A stretch of 64,000 nucleotides of DNA from a virus (IMGVR_UViG_3300045988_144274:21807-85806), one strand, 5' to 3'; counted from the first letter of the stretch, positions 3,401 to 41,120 are shown. Translations and numbers: made by a program. Notes: generated from the sequence alone by a model not told the origin.

Positions 3401-6274
3401 AAAAATAGAATAAAACAAGATTTAGGTATTAGCATTTCTTATGACGAAAAGGAAGTCGAGAAAGAAATGACCGACCTGCAAAAAAAACTATCTGAATATG
3501 TAAATGAATATAATAATAAGCCTGAAATAAAAGGGAAAAACGCTTTAAAATTGCCAATTGTTACAGCAGAAACAGATGTAGAAGAATATAGAGATAAAAT
3601 TTTTGCAGCTGGTAAAGCCTTAATTGAAGCAGCGCAGGAAAATGCCAATTCTGTTGAGAATCTTGCACCTCATATAGATAAGAATCAAAAGGTCGCAATT
3701 CAGTTAGCAAAATCAGCTGGGGAGGCTCAACAAGCTCTAGCTAAACTTTTTGGATATACGGATAAGAAAGGCGAAAAAGCCGGAGAGACAGCCTATGAGC
3801 GTAAGATAAAGGCTCAATTAGACTTATTGAAAAAAATGCAATCTCAATATGAGAAGCTAAGACAGACAATGGGAGAAGAAGATGCTACAAGCACTATAAC
3901 TTCATCTTTTGGAACAGCTTATCAAAAATTATTCAATAAGCCATTAAAACTTAAATTTGATAAGGCTTCGATAGCTAATGAGATGGAGTCCATTTCTAAT
4001 ACTATTAGTGGTAAATCAGCGGAAGCATTAAAGAGAAGTTGGCAAAATACCATTGGTGAATTACGTTCAGAAATTACAGTTTCAGCAACTCTTGATAATA
4101 TCAGTGAATTTGAACGTCAAATGGACTCAATGTTTAATAGCTATCAACTGTATATCGAATTGGAGGCTAAAGGTGTTCCTAAAGATCTGATTCAAAATCT
4201 GTTTGGCATTGATGTAACTACGTTGGACGATATAGCTAGAGCGTTAGAGGAAAAATATCCCGATGTTAAAAAATTAGGAGAAAAAGAACTTGATTCTTAT
4301 TTCAAGATACAGAAAAAAATAACTGATAATCAAAAGAACGAACTTGAAAGACGTTCTGATTTATTGTATAATTATTTAGAACAATCTGTAGACAAGGTTA
4401 AACAAGTACAAAATTCAGGAGCACTTGAAATCAGCTTTGCCACTGATTTCTTCAATAAAGGAAGCTTGAATGCCGAACAATATGCGACAGTCGTTAAAAA
4501 TGTCACAGAGAAAGTAAATAAGGAAGTTAGCAAGATTAATACAGATAAGTTCAAAGAAACTCCTGAATATATTCAAGCTATGGGTGACTTATCCGCTTAT
4601 TCTGCTTCTCAATTAGAAGTAATGATAGCTAGAATGCAGGAACTTATAAACTCTTCTGCCGGAAATCTAAATGCATCAGATTTGAAAGTATATACAGATT
4701 TGATAGATAAGATACAAGACAGATTAAAGCAGATTAAATCTCCGTTTAGTAAAAATGCTTTTGCAGAATTTAGAGAACTAAAAAGACTACAAGCGGAATT
4801 TAATGCAGAAACAGAAAGATATAATCAACTGTTGAGAGAGCAGAATATTGCTAAAGATAGACTTGAAAGCGCAAAAACAGAAGCCGAACAAGCTAGAGGT
4901 AGAGTTGGAATAGATGCGTCCGCAAAAGATGACCTTATAGCAGCTACAGAGAGTTTGCAAGATGCTAATAGTGCTTTAAATAATTCTAATGATAAATTGA
5001 ACATTTCACAAGGTAAACTGTCTAACATATCCGGTAAAATGGGACAGATACAGGGTGGAATGAGTGCAGCCATGTCAATGATTGACAAGATAGTTACTGG
5101 TATTTACCAATCTATTGAAGCGACCATTGATATAATGAATCAATTTAAAGAACTTCAAGAATCACAAGGCGTTGATACGTCCAAAGGAGGATGGAGAGAA
5201 GCGGCACAAGCAGGAGAATTATTGGGTAATGTAAATAATAAAGTGATGTCCTCTTGGAACAATTTCAAGAGTGGCAATATTGCCGGAGCAGTAGCCGATG
5301 CGGTTGGCTCTATAACATCTATTTTCACAACATTAAATAAGCAACATGATGCTAGAAGAGAGCAAACCATTCAAGAGGAAATAAAGCAAGTAGAAAAGCT
5401 TCAAAAGGCTTATCAAAGATTAGGTGATGCAATAGAAAATGCATATACTATTGATACTCTGAATATGAGTACTGAAAATGCTCAACGTAATATTCAAGAC
5501 CAAATCAAGAGCTATCAAAACATGATAGCTGCCGAAGAAGATAAGAAAGATACAGATTGGGATAGAATAGATGAATGGAAAGAAGCTATAATTGATTTGC
5601 AAGAACAGGCAGATGAACTTAGGAGTCAAAAACTTAATGAATTAGGAGGTTTTGGTAGCGGAGCAGACATGAAATCTGCCGCAGAAGAATTTGCATCTGC
5701 TTGGCTAGAAGCCTATAAAGAAACAGGTGATGGATTAACAGCATTAGAAGATAAATGGGATGAATATATCAATAATGTAATTATGAAACAGTTGGCTCTA
5801 AGAGGAATAGAAAAATTCTTAGAACCAATAATGAATAATCTGAATAATATGATCGGTTCGGATTCATATTTATCTGATGATGAATTAAAAGCGTTGCAGA
5901 AACAAATTGAAGAAAAGATGCCTGCTTTAAATGAGTATTTCAAAACAATATCAGAGAATTTCGGTGTACCAATTACTGGTGGAGAGGACAATGGCTCTAC
6001 TCTTAACAAAGGTATTCAAGGTGTGACGGAAGAAACCGCTAATGTTATTGAAGCTTATCTTAATTCAATGAGATATTTTGTCGCAGACACCAATATGGTT
6101 ATCAACAATTTCTTTGCTGCATTTACTAGCTTAGACCCATTGCAGAACCCAATGTACAGTGAGCTTGCAAATCAAACTAAACTTTTGAGAAGCATAGATG
6201 ATAGATTGGCAAGTGTTATTACATACAGTGGCGACCATCCTAACGGTGGGGCATCAATAAAAGTACTAACATAA
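473..6274 (+). CDS. tail tape measure protein
   Basis: 1933 aa, extremely helical/coiled-coil K/E/Q/A-rich sequence with central hydrophobic segments (FAIALNTAGAVFVTYSIKAAIAAAA, NPWILVATAIAGTIFYL). Follows the chaperone pair. Confidence 0.9.
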   Translation: MGATGYVLTIPDEVLKKLELADTKINAIAESSEKTANRFNQAFSSMALSVDPLIKRLDALKNIGKLDLGSGLKKYTSDSEKAAAGIAEVANKLNQLKYISSQSSSANNSVLAWQGINENLKIQQQRLDAINRSIKEYENTLSQIQSGKGGVLSKEDQSNYAANLAEAESIKQTIALYQQKQQAIVNYQLEQKKVADNLAKLKSLESDSKSLPEQRKREELERLNALYRSGQSLLQKQAKAEDELGKAAQKVAIALDKAAKAEEKKNSARANKANQEAARAEEQYARALNKSEVTIVQRARKIEALANAQRALNSTGRDYSSQLSKIASETQRLQQANDNVAKSMERVKRSQSSVLNTTDQLTRKIALLFSVSAIQGYVEKLVSVRGEFELQQRALQAILQNKDEANALWEKTVALAVKSPFQVKELVTYTKQLAAYRIESDKLYDTTKMLADVSAGLGVDMGRLILAYGQVKAANYLRASEVRQFTEAGVGLLQELATMYTELEGRMVSVGEVQARITKRMVAFGDVEEVFKRITSAGGIFYNMQEIQAETLAGMISNLKDNFDVMFNEIGKANDGVLKGFINILNTVVAQWRDFAIALNTAGAVFVTYSIKAAIAAAANRKIGVSAIEAMIAQGGLAKAIGYTTNALIKSFNFVKANPWILVATAIAGTIFYLKDLTERLDETRATYDVLNNQIDTQKSNLESLTNKIEKQVKAQEDAESSLSNVKKGTQEYKEAEQKANEEREKTQKLLNILKTQYPEVYAKVMQNKEGIKSLASEQKKYNDELERTQTLNRLMQAGTPLFGDSFREQAESYTQSLDRQKKAIKNLTGDYDSLVKEIQFLFKTEKEIPDSIKTQVNSIINSNTTIEEKTQALLAYARSLATHTQTSNRMLNNLRITAKKSLEDLEDANKNRVVQMQEMNKSYVSLRDNALKEANITLAEFKALSKEQQEDLGKRMATFIKSSAGAESNFARFFLKNRIKQDLGISISYDEKEVEKEMTDLQKKLSEYVNEYNNKPEIKGKNALKLPIVTAETDVEEYRDKIFAAGKALIEAAQENANSVENLAPHIDKNQKVAIQLAKSAGEAQQALAKLFGYTDKKGEKAGETAYERKIKAQLDLLKKMQSQYEKLRQTMGEEDATSTITSSFGTAYQKLFNKPLKLKFDKASIANEMESISNTISGKSAEALKRSWQNTIGELRSEITVSATLDNISEFERQMDSMFNSYQLYIELEAKGVPKDLIQNLFGIDVTTLDDIARALEEKYPDVKKLGEKELDSYFKIQKKITDNQKNELERRSDLLYNYLEQSVDKVKQVQNSGALEISFATDFFNKGSLNAEQYATVVKNVTEKVNKEVSKINTDKFKETPEYIQAMGDLSAYSASQLEVMIARMQELINSSAGNLNASDLKVYTDLIDKIQDRLKQIKSPFSKNAFAEFRELKRLQAEFNAETERYNQLLREQNIAKDRLESAKTEAEQARGRVGIDASAKDDLIAATESLQDANSALNNSNDKLNISQGKLSNISGKMGQIQGGMSAAMSMIDKIVTGIYQSIEATIDIMNQFKELQESQGVDTSKGGWREAAQAGELLGNVNNKVMSSWNNFKSGNIAGAVADAVGSITSIFTTLNKQHDARREQTIQEEIKQVEKLQKAYQRLGDAIENAYTIDTLNMSTENAQRNIQDQIKSYQNMIAAEEDKKDTDWDRIDEWKEAIIDLQEQADELRSQKLNELGGFGSGADMKSAAEEFASAWLEAYKETGDGLTALEDKWDEYINNVIMKQLALRGIEKFLEPIMNNLNNMIGSDSYLSDDELKALQKQIEEKMPALNEYFKTISENFGVPITGGEDNGSTLNKGIQGVTEETANVIEAYLNSMRYFVADTNMVINNFFAAFTSLDPLQNPMYSELANQTKLLRSIDDRLASVITYSGDHPNGGASIKVLT

Positions 6275-6294
6275 TATTGTTTTCAGGAAGGATT

Positions 6295-6322
6295 AGCCGG
6301 AGTAAATTCCGGCTTTTCTTAT
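6295..6322 (+). terminator. intrinsic terminator after tape measure gene
   Basis: AGCCGGA-gtaaat-TCCGGCT hairpin followed by TTTCTTATTT. Confidence 0.7.
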
Positions 6323-6329
6323 TTAATAG

Positions 6330-6525
6330 CTATTCTATACAAAAATATAGGAGTATGTTTTCTAGACCACTCCTATATATAAATAAGACAACCATAATAA
6401 ATAGACTCGTACGCATTGTACGTACTGTACGAGTTAGAACTCAAATTAGAAACCGAATTATTAAACATTAATCTCTTTTTGCAATGCAGGTAGCTCCAAC
6501 TATCTGCATTCTTTGCTCCTAACTT
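6330..6525 (-). ncRNA. candidate ~190-nt small RNA (unit A)
   Basis: ORF-free segment between the minus-strand TATATTTGCAG box (6530-6540) and the minus-strand hairpin ATAGGAGT...ACTCCTAT followed by ATTTTTG. Contains hairpins 6483-6510 and ACTCGTAC...GTACGAGT with three GTACG copies. Confidence 0.25.
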
Positions 6526-6529
6526 TCTG

Positions 6530-6540
6530 CTGCAAATATA
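6530..6540 (-). promoter_or_regulatory. Bacteroidota-type -7 promoter box, extended form TATATTTGCAG
   Basis: Reverse complement of ctgcaaatata. Matches TAnnTTTG. Identical 11-mer at four other sites. Confidence 0.35.
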
Positions 6541-6543
6541 GTA

Positions 6544-6891
6544 CTAATTTTCTCTATTCCAAAATTTGTCTAAGTCTTTTGGTAGAATTGGTTCTATTTT
6601 TTTCAGTAAATCTTCATAAATAGAAGTATATACCTTGTGAAATTTCAATCCATTCTTTATTTTAGCACACATTTTTTTTATAGATCGAGGTTGTCTTGGA
6701 TATACTTTACTAATTGTCAATGGAGACATTTCCAACTTATAATGTAATATATAAAAAAGGAAAGCTCTAGCCGATACGACATTTTCCATCCTTTCTTTAT
6801 TTACAAGTTCTTGTTCTGTCACTCCAAAATGAGTGCAGACTATTTTCTCAATCTCATCTATTTTCTTTGCTACATCAAGTTCTAAAGTCAT
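6544..6891 (-). CDS. DnaA C-terminal-domain-like helix-turn-helix protein (putative regulator)
   Basis: Pattern FGVTEQELVNKERMENVVSARAFLFYILHYKLEMSPLTISKVY..RSIKK resembles the Bac_DnaA_C HTH domain. Isolated minus-strand gene between plus-strand blocks. Confidence 0.5.
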   Translation of the reverse strand: MTLELDVAKKIDEIEKIVCTHFGVTEQELVNKERMENVVSARAFLFYILHYKLEMSPLTISKVYPRQPRSIKKMCAKIKNGLKFHKVYTSIYEDLLKKIEPILPKDLDKFWNREN

Positions 6892-6913
6892 AGTGTACTA
6901 TTATGGACACAAA

Positions 6914-6929
6914 TGTACTAATTAGTACA
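6914..6929. promoter_or_regulatory. perfect 16-bp palindrome TGTACTAATTAGTACA (candidate operator)
   Basis: Lies between the -7 box at 6938-6945 and the start codon at 6891. Overlaps a second inverted repeat, TAGTGTACTA (6891-6900) / TAGTACACTA (6923-6932). Confidence 0.4.
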
Positions 6930-6937
6930 CTACCTTC

Positions 6938-6945
6938 CAAATATA
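6938..6945 (-). promoter_or_regulatory. -7 promoter box TATATTTG for the HTH gene
   Basis: Reverse complement of caaatata, 47 nt upstream of the ATG at 6891. Confidence 0.4.
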
Positions 6946-7075
6946 TTCGGGAATATTTCATATACAGTTGGTATTCAACGTGATATATACTATAAAATAC
7001 TGCGTAGTGTATTTCTGTAGTTTTCACCTTATTTATTGCATAGTTCAATGTCGGACTATATTAAATGTATTTTTT

Positions 7076-8059
7076 ATGGAATCAAAAACAGTTGTTTATA
7101 CTCCTGATGCAGGGAGTGGAAGCGGAAGTGGAATGATGGCTATGCTTGCTCCACTTTTGCAGCAGAAAGGTATTGATCCTAACTTGTTAATGGCTTTGAA
7201 TAGCAAAGGAAATGGAAACGGGTTTGGTGGAGATGGCTCATGGTTCTTATGGATTATCTTCTTGTTCTTCCTTTTCCCTCTTTTCGGTCGTAATGGTTGG
7301 GGTAATAATGGTGGTAACGATGGTGGAAATGGTGGCGGATATGGTGTCGCTGGTATTCCAAATTTGATTAACAATGATGCAGGAAGGGAATTACTAATGA
7401 GTGCTATTCAAGGAAATGGTCAGGCTATTAACACTTTAGCTACCAATTTGAATTGTTCGGTTGGACAAATTCAACAGTCTATTAATGGCGTTATGACACA
7501 AATTCAAGGTGTTGGTAATCAAGTGGGTATGTCAAGCCAACAAATTATCAATAGCATTCAATCTGGAAATTGTCAGATTGCACAGGCTATTGCAGATTGT
7601 TGCTGCAAGACACAGAATGCTATTACTACGCAAGGTTATGAAAATCAGTTGTCTATTTGCAATCAGACCAATACATTGGTTAACACTGCAAATCAGAACA
7701 CTTTGGCTTTACGTGATGGAGCAACTGCCAATACGCAAGCTATCTTGTCTAAATTGGATGCTATGCAGAATCAGAACTTGCTTGATAAAATTGACAAGCT
7801 TCGTGAAGATAAGAGTACTTTGCTTGCTCAAATTTCTAACGATGCACAGACAAGAAATATTCAAGCTTTCCAAGCTCAAACTATTGCGCCTGTAAATGCT
7901 GCTCTTAGTGATTTAAGTGCTCGATTGGCTAAAATTGAATGTAAACAACCTGAAACAGTAACAATTCCATACATTCCAGCAATGGGAAGTATGATTCCTG
8001 TAAACTATAGTGTGCCTGTAAGTATGGGGGTTACTCCTTACACTAACTGCGGTTGTTAA
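7076..8059 (+). CDS. Gly/Asn/Gln-rich single-pass membrane protein with Cys cluster, unknown function
   Basis: Track ORF 6968..8059 starts at TTG. ATG at 7076 (MESKTVV) is the more plausible start. Contains a GSGSGSG tract, TM segment WFLWIIFLFFLFPLF, GNNGGNDGGNGGGYG tract, long Q/N-rich helical region, CCC motif and C-terminal NCGC. Confidence 0.6.
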   Translation: MESKTVVYTPDAGSGSGSGMMAMLAPLLQQKGIDPNLLMALNSKGNGNGFGGDGSWFLWIIFLFFLFPLFGRNGWGNNGGNDGGNGGGYGVAGIPNLINNDAGRELLMSAIQGNGQAINTLATNLNCSVGQIQQSINGVMTQIQGVGNQVGMSSQQIINSIQSGNCQIAQAIADCCCKTQNAITTQGYENQLSICNQTNTLVNTANQNTLALRDGATANTQAILSKLDAMQNQNLLDKIDKLREDKSTLLAQISNDAQTRNIQAFQAQTIAPVNAALSDLSARLAKIECKQPETVTIPYIPAMGSMIPVNYSVPVSMGVTPYTNCGC

Positions 8060-34348: not shown

Positions 34349-35083
34349 TTACTTCATTATCTTTTTAAGTTTCCGATACATTGCAGCAGCACGAACTGAA
34401 TTATATTCCATTCCTGTAGCTGTCTTTTGATTCAGATTATTCAATTTTTGTGCAATATCTCCCCAAATTTCGTAGTTTCTAGGCTCTCCCTTATCTTTTA
34501 TCCAATCAGTAATGAAAGCCCAAAAAAACACATTACTTTCATTAACACGTGCATTTTCTCGCCTTTTGTTTGCGGACTCATCGTGCATCTTATTTATTGA
34601 AACTATTCTATCTGTAGAACTATTCTTTCCCCACAATTCTTTTGTTCCTCCTGTTTGCTCATTACGTTTTTTCTTTGCTGCTAAAGCCGCTTTTGTACGT
34701 ATGCTAACCAACAATGCTTCTCTTTCAGCCAAACTGAAGAATAATGTCAAAGTAAATTTGTCACTATTAGGTAAATCACAAAAAACAATATTGTTTTCAC
34801 CAATTTCCGCTAATACTTGTAGTGCCTCTAATGTATTACGGAAACGATCGCACTTAGCAATAATCAATTTAGCATTTTCTTTCTTTGCGTGTTCAATCGC
34901 TTTCCGTAATTCCGTACATTTAGACAATTCCGTTCCGGTATAAATTTCTTCATAGTCCGCCAACAACAAACCGTTATCTTTTTCTATGAAGTAATTTATA
35001 ATGTCTTTTTGTGCCTCAAGTCCTAAACCAGATCGACCTTGTTTTTGCGTTGACACCCTACGCCAAGAAATATACTTATTCAT
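34349..35083 (-). CDS. small serine recombinase (resolvase/invertase type)
   Basis: N-terminal catalytic domain with SWRRVSTQKQ (catalytic Ser), LEAQ, IIAKCDRFRN and FFSLAEREALLVSIRTKAAL. Short C-terminal domain. Confidence 0.8.
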   Translation of the reverse strand: MNKYISWRRVSTQKQGRSGLGLEAQKDIINYFIEKDNGLLLADYEEIYTGTELSKCTELRKAIEHAKKENAKLIIAKCDRFRNTLEALQVLAEIGENNIVFCDLPNSDKFTLTLFFSLAEREALLVSIRTKAALAAKKKRNEQTGGTKELWGKNSSTDRIVSINKMHDESANKRRENARVNESNVFFWAFITDWIKDKGEPRNYEIWGDIAQKLNNLNQKTATGMEYNSVRAAAMYRKLKKIMK

Positions 35084-36317: not shown

Positions 36318-36510
36318 GGCTTTAATATTTTAAATTGTTTAATATAAACATTCTTCTTTCTATTCTTTTGCGTTCTTTCTCTGAATAATATACTTTGTTA
36401 TTCATCACCGTACAAACGAATTCTATTCTTTTATGGCACTTATATACGACTCAACACCTAGCCTTGTGCCATAACTTTTAGTTATAACTTTGTTAATCTT
36501 TATGAGAGTA

Positions 36511-37284
36511 TCATTTTCTGATACTCTCTATTTTATTTGTAAATTCAGAAATGTCTTTTCCTTCTAGTTCTAAAGTCTCTTTGACCTCTGCTAGAACTTT
36601 TGGTAAATATTCTAATGAAAGTGGATCTTTCTTCCCTAAATATTTGGCAGCATAAACAGGTAGCCAAACTCCATGTACAAACTCTATAAATATATGAAGC
36701 ATTTCATTTGGATACATATTTGCAGGGAACTCATACCCATTAGGAAACTTGTGTTTATAGTTTCTTTTATTGTTCAGCATTTCAGGATATTTATCTTCTA
36801 AATAGGCGACAAAACGCCTTCCCACTGAATTATCTGGGCGAATCTCCTTATCATCAATACCTTTATTAGGTATAACATATCCATGATATTCAAATAATCG
36901 GTTTAATGTTAAATATAATTGAGATACAACAGAAAAATAAGTTATTGGTGTTCGTTTATCATTTTCTTTAAATCTAGTGAGAAAATTAGGTTCTTCTTTC
37001 CTATTAATTTTGCCATAATATCCTTTCTCCCGAATAGAAGGAATCACTTCATCAAATATCCATGATTCAAATCTTTCAGCAGATGGGAGTTTAGAACGAA
37101 TAATTAAGCGGTAAACATCTCCTTCGGGTATAAAATTCATATTTACTCCACCTATGCCATTGGCATGAGCAACATAGCATTTCTCTATATTGCCTGATTT
37201 ACAATGAGTTGTAACAGCTTCTGCGGGGTTTTCATATCCTAACATTTTCGCTACATCGGATGCACAAAAAAAGTATTTTACCAT
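36511..37284 (-). CDS. Bro-N domain protein (main frame)
   Basis: FFCASDVAKMLGYENPAEAVTTHCK ... DVYRLIIRSKLPSAERFESWIFDEVIPSIREKGYY is a strong Bro-N match. Confidence 0.8.
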   Translation of the reverse strand: MVKYFFCASDVAKMLGYENPAEAVTTHCKSGNIEKCYVAHANGIGGVNMNFIPEGDVYRLIIRSKLPSAERFESWIFDEVIPSIREKGYYGKINRKEEPNFLTRFKENDKRTPITYFSVVSQLYLTLNRLFEYHGYVIPNKGIDDKEIRPDNSVGRRFVAYLEDKYPEMLNNKRNYKHKFPNGYEFPANMYPNEMLHIFIEFVHGVWLPVYAAKYLGKKDPLSLEYLPKVLAEVKETLELEGKDISEFTNKIESIRK

Positions 37285-37375
37285 CTTCCTTTTCGATAGT
37301 TCTCAATTCGTTAAATTGAGATTCTTCTTCCGATTCATATTTGAATATCTCAAATTGATAATTAATATTTTCCAT
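37232..37375 (-). pseudogene. N-terminal Bro-N fragment in a different frame (frameshifted start of the gene above)
   Basis: MENINYQFEIFKYESEEESQFNELRTIEKEDGK supplies the missing first strands of Bro-N. It joins YFFCASDV only by skipping one nt in the A4 run (plus-strand TTTT 37276-37279). Confidence 0.5.
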
Positions 37376-37468
37376 ATTTTCTTCATTTATACTTATAAAT
37401 AAAAAAGCTCTTTCTAGTTGGTGTTAACTGGAAAGAGCATGTTTCTTTTTCGACTGCTAAGATAGCAA

Positions 37469-37666
37469 TTATTTTTCAATCTTCCAATTTATTTTTGTAT
37501 AAAGTGAAATAAAGAAGAAGCCTATCAGGCACATAGATACTATATCTGTTACCATAGATATAATTGGTGAAATTTTAGTGATTAGACAAATAATCGCCAT
37601 GATTGCTTTTAATAGGCATCCTATAAATGCTATTAAAGATGCTGTTTTGAAATTTGTTATTCTCAT
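37469..37666 (-). CDS. small two-TM membrane protein
   Basis: Hydrophobic segments SLIAFIGCLLKAIMAIICLI and IVSMCLIGFFFISL. Confidence 0.5.
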   Translation of the reverse strand: MRITNFKTASLIAFIGCLLKAIMAIICLITKISPIISMVTDIVSMCLIGFFFISLYTKINWKIEK

Positions 37667-37695
37667 TTTATTGGGTTATTAATTTACTTATAGAG

Positions 37696-38262
37696 TTATT
37701 TCCATTTATCAAGATTTCCTTTCTGTATTTCTTTCTCAAATAAACTATAGGCGTCCCTTGCTTTTTCAGCTGCACTCTTTTTGATTTTAAAATCAAAATA
37801 TCCATCAGTAGTATAGATTCTTACAGAAGTCATCAACTTATTTTTGAATACAGATAAATCACCTAATAACAAATACCTTATTCCCCATGAATCCATACCT
37901 AGTGCTCCTACAGTTCCTTCACCATGTCCTGCTGCATAATCTGATATAGTAAAGATGTGTGTATTATCATCTTCATCAAGGAAAATAACTTTAGATTCAT
38001 TTCTTTTGGCTATATATACATTTATTGACATCCATTTCATCAACATCATATCTAACCCATTCTCATGTCCAAAGCATATCCATATAGTTTTCCCTAATTG
38101 TCTCCCCATTATTAATGGTTCAGAAGATATTTTCTCATAAGACGTGTACACAACTTTGTCTTTTGTGAATTTATCAGTTTTGCTAACTTTAATACTTTGA
38201 GCTTGAATATTGATGCTAAACATCAATAATAATAGAAGTATAATATTCTGTTTCATAATCAT
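37696..38262 (-). CDS. secreted protein, unknown function
   Basis: Signal peptide ILLLLLMFSINIQAQ-S. Confidence 0.6.
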   Translation of the reverse strand: MIMKQNIILLLLLMFSINIQAQSIKVSKTDKFTKDKVVYTSYEKISSEPLIMGRQLGKTIWICFGHENGLDMMLMKWMSINVYIAKRNESKVIFLDEDDNTHIFTISDYAAGHGEGTVGALGMDSWGIRYLLLGDLSVFKNKLMTSVRIYTTDGYFDFKIKKSAAEKARDAYSLFEKEIQKGNLDKWK

Positions 38263-38639
38263 TTCTTGTTACATTTAAATTTAGTGTATATTGTTTCATT
38301 ATTTAAAGTGAACTGTAATTCACAATATTCCCACCATAATTCAGTTACATAACATTTAATGTACTCTTGTTCTCCTACATAAAAAGTTAGATTTCTTTTG
38401 GACAGGTGCCATGTACCTGATACATTTCCTAGATAGCCATTTGTCGAATATGAGCCATCAGGTCTGATTGTTAAAGTAATTTGTAAACTTGGATTTTTAG
38501 AAACTCCAACCCATTCTTCATTTTGTTTTATTTGTTGCAATTTCCATGTTCCCATCAAAGCATCTTTATAAAGATTGTCTTTTGCACAACTTGTGCATAA
38601 TAGAATAGTGAATACAAAAAACGGCAAATACTTTCTCAT
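38259..38639 (-). CDS. lipocalin-like lipoprotein
   Basis: Lipobox LLCTSC, then LMGTWKLQQI typical of Bacteroidota lipocalin-like lipoproteins. Confidence 0.6.
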   Translation of the reverse strand: MRKYLPFFVFTILLCTSCAKDNLYKDALMGTWKLQQIKQNEEWVGVSKNPSLQITLTIRPDGSYSTNGYLGNVSGTWHLSKRNLTFYVGEQEYIKCYVTELWWEYCELQFTLNNETIYTKFKCNKK

Positions 38640-38713
38640 ACACTTGTGTTTTATTGGTTAATACTAAATAATAATGTTTCCATTTAGTTAGCATCACCTC
38701 ACGCATATATATG

Positions 38714-38912
38714 AAAAAGGCGTAGAGCTAATGCCTAACGCCATCGAGGGCTACCACACCCTACTCACTTATAGGCAAAAGTCTACGCCAGTATATGGCG
38801 TATAAACGCAATACACCCATAAGTGAGTTCCAAAATAGCCTTATTGCTGTCAATGTGGTAGTTCGATGGCGATTAGGCTATAATACGTAAAAAGCGTACC
38901 ATCTATTCGATG
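38714..38912 (-). ncRNA. structured leader or ~200-nt sRNA with nested rod-like helices and terminator
   Basis: Perfect nested complementarity 38739-38758 / 38854-38871, 38763-38772 / 38819-38828 and 38785-38790 / 38796-38801. Promoter box upstream. GGCGU...ACGCC hairpin plus U5 at the 3' end. No ORF. Confidence 0.45.
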
Positions 38913-38918
38913 ATACGC
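38889..38918 (-). terminator. intrinsic terminator abutting the promoter box
   Basis: On the minus strand: GCGUAUCAUC-gaaua-GAUGGUACGC (one mismatch) followed by U5. Confidence 0.5.
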
Positions 38919-38928
38919 TGCAAATATA
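38918..38928 (-). promoter_or_regulatory. promoter box TATATTTGCAG
   Basis: Reverse complement of ctgcaaatata. Confidence 0.4.
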
Positions 38929-39027
38929 GATATAAAGTTTGATATTTCAAATTAAAGTATTAATTATAGTTACTGATAATCTTCCTTAAAAAATAAAGAA
39001 AATATTTTTTAATCACGTAATAAATTA

Positions 39028-39035
39028 TACATTTG
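39028..39035 (+). promoter_or_regulatory. -7 promoter box TACATTTG
   Basis: Matches TAnnTTTG, upstream of the plus-strand small gene cassette. Confidence 0.3.
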
Positions 39036-39093
39036 CATTGACTTTTGGAAAAGGAGCTAATAACACTTACCGTTTTTGCACCTAAAAAAAATG

Positions 39094-39121
39094 AAACCCA
39101 GTATCCTACTACTGGGTTTTT
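39094..39121. terminator. bidirectional terminator hairpin with alternative 12-bp pairing
   Basis: AAACCCAGTA-tcctac-TACTGGGTTT flanked by A8 upstream and T-rich sequence downstream. GTATCCTACTAC (39101-39112) can instead pair with GTAGTAGGATAC (39127-39138). Confidence 0.55.
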
Positions 39122-39184
39122 GTCTTGTAGTAGGATACAGGACATTAAACAGGCTAAAAGCCAAAAAAGGAAGGAGGTGTTATT

Positions 39185-39322
39185 ATGTCCAATTCCAAAG
39201 TCATCAATGGTAAATTATGCAAGTTGATATTTGCTAAATCTATTATTAGAAATGGTAAAACGATTTATCCAAAGAAATCTAAAGTATTCGCTTTTTGGAT
39301 TCCAGTAGAGAAATCGGCTTAA
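39185..39322 (+). CDS. small basic protein (45 aa, below track cutoff)
   Basis: Hand-read ORF MSNSKVINGKLCKLIFAKSIIRNGKTIYPKKSKVFAFWIPVEKSA preceded by AAGGAGG. Antisense to the surrounding array. Confidence 0.45.
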   Translation: MSNSKVINGKLCKLIFAKSIIRNGKTIYPKKSKVFAFWIPVEKSA

Positions 39323-39334
39323 TAATTTATCGCT

Positions 39335-39356
39335 ATGGGGTGGTAGGACACCCCAT
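39335..39356. terminator. hairpin ATGGGGTG-gtagga-CACCCCAT
   Basis: Lies between convergent small genes. Loop carries the GTAGGACAC motif. Confidence 0.45.
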
Positions 39357-39376
39357 ATTTAATCATAGCATTACCG

Positions 39377-39568
39377 TTACTCCTTCTTCTTTTCCTCCTT
39401 GTCTTTATCTTTCTCATCTTCAACTTGATCCGGTGTTTTCCCTTCCGCAATGTGCGCCATCTTTCGGAGCAGTTCATCGAACTGTTCTTTAGGAACAGAA
39501 AAGTTAATCTCTAACCTCACTGTTTTAATGTTACTTAGGTCTATTTCTTGTTTCTTTTTCTTTCCCAT
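39377..39568 (-). CDS. small K/E-rich protein
   Basis: Track ORF immediately downstream of the transposase. Confidence 0.45.
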   Translation of the reverse strand: MGKKKKQEIDLSNIKTVRLEINFSVPKEQFDELLRKMAHIAEGKTPDQVEDEKDKDKEEKKKE

Positions 39569-39570
39569 AA

Positions 39571-40473
39571 CTAAGCTGCATTACGCAAAAGTAAATTAAA
39601 TCTTTGAGAATCGGTAAAATTTCGAGTATTAAATCGGAAAATATATTCGTCAATATACCTCTGCATATATTTTTTGCTTACATGATAGTATATCCCAAAT
39701 ATCATTCTCTTGAAATGCGACCACACATTTTCGATACCGTTCGTACTAACAACGATTATCTCACCTTCATCTGTTGCATAGGTCGTACCATAGAAATGTT
39801 TTTCATGGTCTACTGACCTTTGTACATACTTCCCATGCAGTCCACTGTAATCCCAACCATCAGTATAAACAACACTACCTAATTCAACTTTTTCTTTGAT
39901 AATCGGAACTATAGTTTTAGCTTGTGTATTGGGAACAACTTTGGCAATAACCTTACCACCTCTTTCAAGTATTCCGAATACAGGAACTTTATCCTTATAA
40001 CTACGTCCTTGACATTTCTCTACTTTCTTATCCTTATGTCTATTTTTATTCTTCCCACCTACAAACGCTTCATCAATTTCAACCTCACCGGATAAAGTAT
40101 GGCTATTCTCCATCTCCATATATTGTCTAATCTTATGGAGCATCTTCCACGCTGTTTTTTGAGTTATACCTAAATCTCTCGCTAATTGACATGATGAAAC
40201 ACCTCTCTTATGTGACAAGAATAACATCATAGCATAAAACCATGCTTTCATAGGCAGTTTAGTATTGGCAAATGCAGTACCAGTTTTAACATCAAAGTAT
40301 CTTCCAGTATTCTTGCATTTATACTTACCATTACCACATTTATAAACCTTAGAATTGCTGTCATAAGGCGAAATGACTTCATCTCCCCATCGCATCTTCT
40401 CAAAATATCTGATGCAACTTTCTTCATCAGGAAAGTTTTCAGATAGAGTTAAAAGAGTAAAATCGGTTTTCAT
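39571..40473 (-). CDS. IS1595-family (ISXO2-like) DDE transposase
   Basis: N-terminal zinc-ribbon region (CIRYFEKMRWGD..YKCGNGKYKCKN), HTH (SSCQLARDLGITQKTAWKMLHKIR), and DDE_Tnp_IS1595-like core (EVEIDEAFVGG ... VYTDGW ... TNGIENVWSHFKR). Confidence 0.8.
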   Translation of the reverse strand: MKTDFTLLTLSENFPDEESCIRYFEKMRWGDEVISPYDSNSKVYKCGNGKYKCKNTGRYFDVKTGTAFANTKLPMKAWFYAMMLFLSHKRGVSSCQLARDLGITQKTAWKMLHKIRQYMEMENSHTLSGEVEIDEAFVGGKNKNRHKDKKVEKCQGRSYKDKVPVFGILERGGKVIAKVVPNTQAKTIVPIIKEKVELGSVVYTDGWDYSGLHGKYVQRSVDHEKHFYGTTYATDEGEIIVVSTNGIENVWSHFKRMIFGIYYHVSKKYMQRYIDEYIFRFNTRNFTDSQRFNLLLRNAA

Positions 40474-40494
40474 AACGTCAAATTTTTAGCTATC

Positions 40495-40502
40495 CAAATA
40501 TA
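40495..40502 (-). promoter_or_regulatory. -7 promoter box TATATTTG for the transposase
   Basis: Reverse complement of caaatata, 22 nt upstream of the ATG at 40473. Confidence 0.35.
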
Positions 40503-40625
40503 CTAAAAATCAACGATATTAGCAAGCCATTTGCAATATATTTTCAAGGAAGTTTTTCGCAAGAATGCTAAAGAACATTCTTATACAACATATAGAGCAA
40601 TGTACTGCTTACAAACTATAAACAG

Positions 40626-40633
40626 TACATTTG
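40626..40633 (+). promoter_or_regulatory. -7 promoter box TACATTTG for the KTSC gene
   Basis: TACATTTGCGAC, 32 nt upstream of the ATG at 40665. Embedded in the inverted repeat AATGTACTG / CAGTACATT. Confidence 0.4.
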
Positions 40634-40664
40634 CGACTAGTATTAACCATTAAAACGACAAAAT

Positions 40665-40856
40665 ATGATACCTATTGCATCCTCTGCATTTCTCGGAGTA
40701 GATTATAATTCCGAAACAAGAGCTTTAACAGTATATTTTAGAGATGGAAGAAATTACACTCATCATGGAGTGCCAGAATCAGTATACAAACAATTTCTTA
40801 ACGCTCCTTCAAAGGGCAAGTTTTACAATCAGTACATAAAAGGGATTTATCAATAG
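40665..40856 (+). CDS. KTSC domain protein
   Basis: SSAFLGVDYNSETRALTVYFRDGRNYTHHGVPESVYKQFLNAPSKGKFYNQYIKG matches the KTSC pattern. Confidence 0.7.
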   Translation: MIPIASSAFLGVDYNSETRALTVYFRDGRNYTHHGVPESVYKQFLNAPSKGKFYNQYIKGIYQ

Positions 40857-41016
40857 GTTTTAATTGCCAAGCATTTTCCCTAATCCAATCAATATCTACC
40901 TCATGTGGGTCACGGTCTATAGCCCATGCTCCACATGAGGTATCATAAAACTCTCTTAATTGTTCATACGTAAGCTCATTTTTTACTTTTTTTTCTTCTT
41001 CAATTTTCTTTTCCAT
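40798..41016 (-). CDS. hypothetical protein
   Basis: Track ORF. 3' end overlaps the convergent KTSC gene by 59 nt. Confidence 0.4.
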   Translation of the reverse strand: MEKKIEEEKKVKNELTYEQLREFYDTSCGAWAIDRDPHEVDIDWIRENAWQLKPIDKSLLCTDCKTCPLKER

Positions 41017-41120
41017 AATCTTTATTTTTTAATTGTTATTACTTTTTGTTATGACCTAAACACTAGTGTCGGGTCGTATATAAGTGCCTCTTTTATTTAT
41101 AATTGTTCTTTTTTTCATGA

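Follow-up and report, generated by a model that had tools for sequence, protein, structure and literature searches.

The minus strand of positions 38714-38928 in a 64,000-nucleotide (nt) stretch of viral DNA (IMGVR_UViG_3300045988_144274:21807-85806; the whole stretch is referred to as the window, and positions are counted from its first letter) encodes a structured RNA whose helices are maintained by compensatory base changes in homologues from phages, bacterial genomes and metagenomes. The segment runs from a Bacteroides-type promoter motif to a U-tract and precedes open reading frames (ORFs) that lack a second promoter motif, all within an IS1595-family cargo transposon. At a probability of about 0.5, we favour the reading that it is a cis-acting transcription-attenuation leader, that is, an RNA switch with a built-in intrinsic terminator. 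A preliminary description of the same DNA had suggested a riboswitch-like leader or an RNA of ~200 nt ahead of a lipoprotein and secreted-protein gene pair. We rate the element as a new, previously uncatalogued RNA family of the attenuator or riboswitch-like kind, unusual in its long-range terminator stem and in its use as a transposon-borne cassette leader.

A conserved RNA outside known families

All ten segments quoted in the preliminary description (the nested helix pairs, the additional pairing AUAGCCU/AGGCUAU, the TATATTTGCAG box at 38918-38928 and the ATG at 38637-38639) match their coordinates in the sequence. The segment has a GC content of 0.44, compared with 0.21-0.30 in the flanks, and contains no ORF that is kept in homologues, whose alignment includes insertions and deletions of 1-2 nt; these values agree with the ORF-free, GC-enriched segment that had been proposed. 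In the unannotated phage record MT838557 a copy with 68% identity shows compensatory changes in every helix.

Further homologues were sought by pattern scans with the conserved core, which matched 22 IMG/VR contigs (18-115 kb) and 23 contigs of species-representative genomes, the latter from Bacteroides, Paraprevotella, Alistipes, Barnesiella, Dysgonomonas, Segatella, Muribaculaceae and Porphyromonadaceae. Candidate carrier strains are Bacteroides hominis CLA-AA-H207, Segatella maculosa DSM 19339 and Barnesiella sp. WM24. Among the 23 matches, that in Wolbachia (L035) is an evident false positive; a contig labelled 'Bacilli' (L038) fits the RNA model and is probably mis-binned. The element is also present in at least 120 metagenome contigs, mostly from the human gut. 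Among the matches listed, 156 usable occurrences were reduced to 81 distinct sequences and aligned with MAFFT (alignment A2). From A2 a covariance model (R1) was built, which in turn served to align the loci (alignment A3). R1 detects exactly one copy in the window, at 162 bits on the minus strand versus 16 bits on the plus strand, and one copy per locus at 118-165 bits.

None of the 4227 models of Rfam 15 matched anywhere in the 64-kb window at the gathering score, and at E values of up to 10 the region 38500-39200 gave chance-level hits only, the best inside the element being c4-a1b1 (E = 9.7). Seven diverse homologues likewise gave no Rfam match on the RNA, which agrees with the earlier impression that no known RNA family is involved. 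Neither a transfer RNA nor a transfer-messenger RNA is present, and a full-text literature search returned no description of the element.

Compensatory changes in the helices

The minus-strand RNA of 231 nt folds at -91.4 kcal/mol (z = -7.5; 0 of 200 shuffles as good), but the plus strand folds about equally well (z = -7.7), so that folding energy cannot assign the strand. Over all 56 pairs, however, G·U cells of the alignment outnumber A·C cells by 196 to 28. This excess indicates a minus-strand RNA rather than a DNA palindrome or a transcript of the opposite strand and, together with the R1 scores, bears out the strand chosen in the preliminary description.

The four nested helices P1-P4, together with the additional pairing PK and the hairpin P2a, are paired in 93.0% of the cells of A3, compared with 78.4% after column shuffling and 28-42% with slid partners (Table 1). 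Across the 81 distinct homologues, 21 pairs change on both sides, and the comparison for covariation that had been suggested at the outset therefore reveals structure beyond chance. P1-P3 also emerge independently when RNAalifold is given the unfitted MAFFT alignment, and 14 of the 28 pairs are then compensatory. All eight pairs of P3 covary (99.2% of cells paired, up to four pair types per position). P1 is paired in 95.4% of cells and has two covarying pairs, one of them occurring as AU, UA and GC. In P2 the two outer pairs covary, with two pair types per column (UA/CG and CG/UA); as read from the sequences, its end strands are CU/AG, UC/GA, CC/GG (L032) or UU/AA (L031). P4 is less well supported, being paired in 85% of cells, present in ~60% of the distinct sequences and shrunk to ~3 base pairs (bp) in the AUAGCUC lineage. 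Covariation thus sustains the nested helices that had been proposed, P4 less firmly than the others. The same holds for the additional pairing PK, with 95.9% of cells paired and two covarying pairs, which change from CG to UA in 27 sequences and from UA to CG in 28. The AAU linker from PK to P1 may represent loop 1 of an H-type pseudoknot.

Three further helices, P2a, P5 and T-long, were absent from the preliminary description; T-long and P5 were found by reading the sequences. P2a is paired in 99.7% of cells, and three of its four pairs covary. For P5 the values are 93.8% and three of five pairs, and for T-long, which includes many G·U pairs, 98.6% and five of eight pairs. An extension of P1 by GCCUAA/UUAGGC in the minimum-energy fold of the window was rejected, as inspection of the sequences shows that other lineages do not keep it; UAGGC pairs in P5 instead. 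A covariation-backed structured domain in a 5′ untranslated region (UTR), as expected of a riboswitch, is therefore present.

A putative long-range terminator stem and mutually exclusive helices

The preliminary description located the terminator in a GGCGU...ACGCC hairpin followed by five U residues, the 5′ arm of which shares 4 nt (38739-38742) with the 3′ strand of the outermost helix. Hairpin and overlap exist in the window, but the hairpin (GGCGU at 38738-38742) is poorly conserved, with a single covarying pair and inner pairs that are mostly unpaired in homologues. We rejected it as the terminator in favour of T-long, whose stem covaries. Judged by its sequence, T-long is the real terminator stem, and termination is predicted to follow it: its 8-10 GC-rich pairs directly abut the U-tract, as in an intrinsic terminator. 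The U-tract itself, at which the RNA had been proposed to end, consists of five U residues in the window, and 74 of 82 distinct 3′ regions have at least five U in the 8 nt past the stem. With arms ~55 nt apart, T-long is an atypical terminator and is missed by a simple terminator scan.

T-long and P2a each exclude another helix. The 3′ arm of P4 (38785-38790) and the 5′ arm of T-long (38782-38789) have 5 nt in common (38785-38789), and the 3′ strand of P2 comprises the loop of P2a plus flanking nucleotides of its stem. Since P2/P2a and P4/T-long overlap while all four covary, at least two conformations are probably used. Mutually exclusive pairings had been anticipated and do occur; the hard conflicts, however, are those between P4 and T-long and between P2 and P2a, and not only the one between P1 and the short hairpin. 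We designate the nested hairpin P1-P2-P3-P4 as fold A, and the combination of PK, P2a, P5 and T-long followed by the U-tract as fold C. Prefix folding of the window RNA passes from PK to P2, then to PK with P2a and finally to P1 with P2 as the strands emerge, and such flips are the behaviour expected of a co-transcriptional switch. For one lineage (L031), the minimum-energy fold comprises PK, P3, P2a and a 3′ hairpin.

Promoter, spacer and cargo genes

In the window, a TTTG element, a spacing of 19 nt and the -7 box TATATTTG make up a Bacteroides housekeeping-sigma promoter by sequence, in which a -33 TTTG is expected ~19-21 nt ahead of the -7 motif. Of 90 distinct upstream regions, 88 have a TAnnTTTG motif 31-77 nt before the core, in keeping with the promoter box noted at first sight, and 50 of the 88 homologues have a -33 TTG or TTTG at matching spacing. 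Transcription would accordingly begin ~5-8 nt past the -7 box, near 38914-38917. Every lineage has a hairpin at the position of the 5′-terminal hairpin P0, with unrelated sequences; in the window, P0 is probably the terminator of the preceding transposase operon as well.

Between the terminator and the ORF, TAnnTTTG is absent from 78 of 82 variants. In the four exceptions the spacer is longer, and the distance between core start and first ORF is 309-324 nt instead of ~220-250 nt. The UTR motif of the cargo gene has a second copy on the plus strand (40638-40655), preceded by a plain promoter; it is therefore a generic short UTR, which the transposon appears to reuse, and was rejected as a part of the RNA element. 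The gene at this second site (40620-40856, plus strand) is a KTSC-domain ORF (40665-40856; Pfam E = 1e-19), whose 5′ UTR motif TAGTATTAACCATTAAAA directly follows a TAcaTTTG box. Pairing of the UTR motif AGUAUUAACC with the post-terminator motif GGUUAUUGCU in a hairpin was also discarded, because U-to-C variants are uncompensated.

Across the homologues we count 101 distinct first ORFs, on the strand of the RNA and starting ~45-85 nt past the terminator, and the junction between conserved leader and variable gene is the start codon. Among the 91 distinct first ORFs of at least 60 amino acids (aa), 74 contain a signal peptide or transmembrane-like segment (background, 268 of 784) and 39 a lipobox. 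Most encode lipoproteins or membrane proteins of unassigned function, including lipocalin-like, TM2-domain and zinc-ribbon membrane proteins. The placement of the RNA in cis ahead of envelope-protein genes, first noticed for the gene pair in the window, thus recurs in the homologues, and in 78 of 82 variants these ORFs are without a promoter motif of their own. A coherent association with pathway or transport genes, as is typical of riboswitches, was not found across the 101 distinct first ORFs.

An IS1595-family cargo transposon

The RNA resides in a 4,654-bp IS1595-family cargo transposon (36435-41088) inserted in a phage, a context of element and cargo that the preliminary description had missed. 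A DDE_Tnp_IS1595 transposase (Pfam E = 1e-42), imperfect 54-nt inverted repeats with identical outer 16 nt and an 8-bp target duplication establish the family. Besides transposase and RNA, the transposon carries a 63-aa ORF and genes for the lipoprotein, the secreted protein, a small transmembrane protein, a Bro-N/anti-repressor-like protein and the KTSC-domain protein. A sister phage (L172) presents the empty site, with 775 of 800 bases identical across the joined flanks. We found transposase and RNA linked in 84 loci. The inverted repeats of the transposon also bracket the RNA in at least 18 loci besides that of the window, with 8-bp duplications that are perfect and differ in sequence. A second architecture of ~2.8 kb, in which inverted repeat, RNA, cargo, opposite-strand transposase and inverted repeat follow each other, has matching duplications in five loci. 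The IS1595-family cargo transposon is active.

In two IMG/VR contigs (L182 and L183, ~4569-7315) we observed a related IS1595 transposon of 2.75 kb, with a 56% identical transposase, intact repeats and intact target duplications (TTAAAAAC and TTAAAATT). Here a plain promoter precedes the genes for a secreted protein and a lipocalin-like lipoprotein, and the structured RNA is missing. Conversely, in Muribaculaceae-type phages, on the Segatella maculosa chromosome and in an Alistipes contig, the RNA occurs without a transposase within 6 kb, always ahead of an ORF. A role of the RNA in transposition was therefore rejected: RNA and transposase are separable both ways, which fits a function in cargo expression.

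A further copy, in L177 (IMGVR_UViG_3300045988_128536, 615-2472), retains the small ORF, the left repeat and a transposase of 97% identity, and lacks RNA, cargo and right repeat. Phage genes follow directly, so this insertion is apparently truncated or decayed.

Discussion

According to the attenuation reading, the Bacteroides-type promoter (TTTG, 19 nt, TATATTTG) would start a minus-strand transcript near 38915, in which the 5′ hairpin P0 forms first and is followed by a core of ~165 nt. This core could adopt fold A, with P4 occupying the 5′ arm of the terminator and P2 the loop of P2a, or fold C. In fold C, T-long would set 8-10 GC-rich pairs directly before the U-tract, so that transcription would stop at ~38714 and release an RNA of ~200 nt; in fold A, the polymerase would cross the 75-nt spacer and transcribe the cargo ORFs, which themselves lack a promoter motif. 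Termination in fact, and alternation of the two folds rather than their coexistence, are what we infer from these features. A signal, be it a metabolite, a host protein or RNA, or folding kinetics alone, would set the ratio of the folds; that the RNA binds a small molecule as a riboswitch does is a hypothesis. The leader would thus be a portable module, which IS1595-family cargo transposons and some phages and chromosomes put ahead of interchangeable envelope-protein genes.

Several observations weigh against this reading. In nearest-neighbour calculations, which ignore pseudoknots, 17 of 18 lineages have fold A as their minimum-energy structure, with a margin of 3-20 kcal/mol. No nucleotide of T-long or P5 belongs to P1, P2 or P3, so that folds A and C could largely coexist and no switch would be needed. 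P4 is absent or only ~3 bp long in roughly one-third of the sequences, and the U-tract is broken in some lineages (for example, UCUCUU or UUCCUU). A non-canonical promoter might lie in the spacer. Furthermore, the downstream genes have only their envelope location in common and no metabolic theme, and hence indicate no ligand.

One can picture instead a single static, compact, pseudoknotted fold that acts as a constitutive insulator or terminator against read-through from the transposase operon or the insertion site, thereby fixing cargo expression at a low level or stabilizing the transcript. Insulation would benefit the transposon wherever it inserts, T-long and P5 are free of overlap with P1-P3, and PK, the invariant AAU linker and an 8-bp P1 may be laid out as an H-type pseudoknot. 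Yet P2/P2a and P4/T-long cannot co-form although all of them covary, ~165 nt with at least seven conserved helices exceed the needs of a plain terminator, and a plain promoter suffices for a related transposon, which lacks the element; we regard a static fold as quite unlikely. It is also unlikely, if somewhat easier to entertain, that a stand-alone or dual-function RNA of ~200 nt acts in trans on host, phage or transposon targets, its position before the cargo being incidental or secondary. Such an RNA would be well served by its own promoter, by a protective 5′ hairpin P0 in every lineage and by a strong stem with a U-tract at the 3′ end, and the invariant ACCAC and GUGGU segments could be its seed regions. 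These segments, however, pair with each other; 78 of 82 variants keep the same orientation and distance to an ORF without a canonical promoter motif; and no conserved complementarity was found to the transposase 5′ UTR or, by inspection, to the shared UTR motif of the cargo. Regulation of the transposase in trans through a likeness of a PK strand to its 5′ UTR (GAUAGCUAAAA) was rejected, since this UTR shows neither conservation nor covariation with PK. An antitoxin of type I for a neighbouring small ORF was dismissed as well: the 8-nt match GAGCTAAT is about what chance provides, and the ORF is missing from most loci (for example, L005 and L009).

Lying immediately behind a promoter and ahead of a terminator, on phages as well as mobile elements and with envelope genes downstream, the RNA might also be a processive-antitermination element like put of HK022 or EAR of Bacillus; it would bind polymerase or recruit a NusG-like factor, so that its own terminator and further ones would be passed. 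The lack of any likeness to EAR or another Rfam family, the short operons of one to three genes and the absence of a linked NusG-like gene within the flanks examined render this very unlikely. A leader-peptide attenuator was ruled out: there is no conserved ORF, and the AUG triplets of the window are not kept in other lineages. As for a feature of the DNA itself (a palindrome, a cruciform, a miniature inverted-repeat transposable element (MITE) or a site for transposase or recombinase), both strands fold equally well by energy, the segment is part of a transposon, and a gene for a DNA invertase is found close by. We nevertheless disfavour this option as exceedingly improbable, given the sevenfold excess of G·U over A·C in the minus-strand sense, the scores of 162 versus 16 bits, the promoter and U-tract that flank the segment in the RNA sense, the single copy per locus without inverted repeats or target duplication of its own and the transposon with 56% transposase identity that moves without the segment. 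A MITE or repeated palindrome in particular was rejected on account of the single copy per window and locus and the strong strand asymmetry. The preliminary description had named a repeat element or uncompensated variation as findings that would speak against an RNA; instead, the element is single-copy and its changes are compensatory.

The attenuation leader we favour resembles terminator/antiterminator leaders (riboswitch platforms, T-box, PyrR and TRAP) in that it is a promoter-proximal 5′ leader with mutually exclusive helices, one of which is a stem before a U-tract, and in that the downstream ORF has no promoter motif of its own; here, covariation backs both alternatives. It differs from them by the lack of a match to a known aptamer or family, of a leader peptide and of a metabolic theme, by a long-range terminator stem whose arms lie ~55 nt apart and enclose P5 and P2a, and by its transposon-borne location. 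T-box leaders have a stem I with a specifier loop and an antiterminator bulge bearing the T-box sequence, which the UGGU loop here may resemble; the Rfam T-box model matches neither the window nor the homologues, even at E = 10. HK022 put and Bacillus EAR are structured RNAs just after a promoter, on a phage or before envelope-related operons, that govern terminator read-through. Neither resembles the element in sequence or structure (for EAR, by its Rfam model), and here the fold includes its own terminator and the operons are very short.

The attI/Pc leader of class 1 integrons, which includes the disputed 'aminoglycoside riboswitch', precedes exchangeable gene cassettes. As in our case, a conserved promoter and leader on a mobile platform drive whichever cassette follows, but the platform here is a DDE transposon without attC or integrase, and the leader is much larger and strongly covarying. 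IS1595 is an ISfinder family, and insertion sequences with passenger genes are known. The transposon shares with IS1595-family elements a DDE_Tnp_IS1595 transposase with an N-terminal zinc ribbon, terminal inverted repeats, AT-rich target duplications of 8 bp and passenger genes. To our knowledge, no IS1595 member with a conserved structured RNA has been described, although we made no comparison against ISfinder. Structured RNA candidates from gut Bacteroidales and gut metagenomes (Weinberg et al. 2010, PMC2864571) include Bacteroidales-1, Bacteroides-1, Bacteroides-2 and Gut-1, and Bacteroides promoters likewise precede Bacteroidales-1. The Rfam models of Bacteroidales-1, Bacteroides-1, Gut-1 and EAR do not match the element. 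The Bacteroides-2 motif, which is outside Rfam (PMC2864571), is an unrelated GC-rich sequence and was rejected as its identity.

If the attenuation reading holds, an elaborate and widespread regulatory RNA of the mobilome of human-gut Bacteroidales, with at least seven covarying helices, has been missed by RNA catalogues. It would constitute an orphan switch whose signal can be sought, a natural portable promoter-leader-terminator cassette for Bacteroides engineering and an entry point for studying the control of surface proteins by cargo transposons that move between phages and chromosomes; the proteins delivered are plausible players in phage resistance and host interaction. A bolder proposal, possible but tentative and with the odds against it, is that the RNA embodies a signal-sensing switch of a new class, be it an orphan riboswitch or an attenuator that senses a host factor, which transposons and phages of gut Bacteroidales would carry as a plug-in unit to limit expression of the envelope proteins brought into a new host to a certain cellular condition. 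Both the sensing fold and its use in mobile cassettes would then be without precedent. Whatever the mechanism, an active IS1595-family cargo transposon with dozens of independent insertions moves envelope genes among gut phages.

Feature coordinates and neighbouring genes

Table 1. Features of the leader RNA, its cargo and the surrounding transposon, in window positions
Feature	Position	Strand	Remarks
-33 element TTTG	38948-38951	-	19 nt upstream of the -7 box
-7 box TATATTTG	38921-38928	-	fits the Bacteroides TAnnTTTG consensus
P0, 5′-terminal hairpin (GCGUAUCAUC/GAUGGUACGC) and U5	38889-38918	-	flagged as terminator-like by a terminator scan
PK 5′ strand AUAGCCU	38875-38881	-	pairs with 38835-38841
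AAU linker, PK to P1	38872-38874	-	invariant in 81 of 81 sequences
P1 5′ strand CGCCAUCG	38864-38871	-	pairs with 38739-38746
P2 5′ strand CUACCACA	38854-38861	-	pairs with 38751-38758; core ACCAC invariant
PK 3′ strand AGGCUAU	38835-38841	-	in the internal loop between P2 and P3
P3 5′ strand ACUCACUUAU	38819-38828	-	pairs with 38763-38772
P4, apical hairpin ACGCCA-UAUAC-UGGCGU	38785-38801 (38796-38801/38785-38790)	-	3′ arm overlaps the T-long 5′ arm
T-long 5′ arm, conserved apical GGCGUAGA	38782-38789	-	pairs with 38719-38726
P5 5′ strand GCCUA	38772-38776	-	pairs with 38733-38737
P3 3′ strand AUAAGUGAGU	38763-38772	-	pairs with 38819-38828
P2a hairpin AGGG-UGUGGUAG-CCCU	38747-38762 (stem 38759-38762/38747-38750)	-	loop 38751-38758 is the P2 3′ strand
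P1 3′ strand CGAUGGCG	38739-38746	-	pairs with 38864-38871
P5 3′ strand UAGGC	38733-38737	-	pairs with 38772-38776
T-long 3′ arm UCUACGCC	38719-38726	-	3′ half of the terminator stem, directly before the U-tract
U-tract	38714-38718	-	directly after T-long
Spacer, 5′ UTR of cargo gene	38640-38713	-	UTR motif UAGUAUUAACCAAUAAAAC at 38648-38666; no canonical promoter
Lipocalin-like lipoprotein	38259-38639	-	cargo gene 1
Secreted protein, 188 aa	37696-38262	-	cargo gene 2
63-aa ORF	39377-39568	-	lysine-rich N-terminus, acidic C-terminus; between transposase and RNA
DDE_Tnp_IS1595 transposase	39571-40473	-	upstream of the RNA
Inverted repeats, 54 nt	36435-36488 and 41035-41088		imperfect; outer 16 nt GGCACTTATATACGAC identical
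Target duplication TCTTTTAT, 8 bp	36427-36434 and 41089-41096		flanks the transposon

The 63-aa ORF is retained between transposase and RNA in at least 27 loci, and seven more have a second type. It has no match in Pfam or PHROG; from its sequence, a ribbon-helix-helix-like regulator would be our guess. The invertase gene mentioned above encodes a serine recombinase (34349-35083, minus strand; Pfam Resolvase, PHROG 125) and is located ~1.3 kb past the end of the transposon.

A divergent small unit at 39027-39330 on the plus strand has a TAcaTTTG promoter and a terminator-like hairpin (39093-39120), which overlaps an alternative hairpin (39098-39112/39127-39141). A Shine-Dalgarno sequence, GGAAGGAGGTG, which is strong and unusual for Bacteroidetes, precedes a lysine-rich 45-aa ORF (39185-39322, plus strand), and the 5′ end of the unit (39044-39066) is 83% complementary to the ribosome-binding site and start region (39177-39199). 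In these sequence traits, the unit resembles a type I toxin messenger RNA. The divergent block of ~450 bp is absent from L005 and L009, and MT838557 has an analogous, arginine-rich ORF of 28 aa at the position of the 45-aa ORF.

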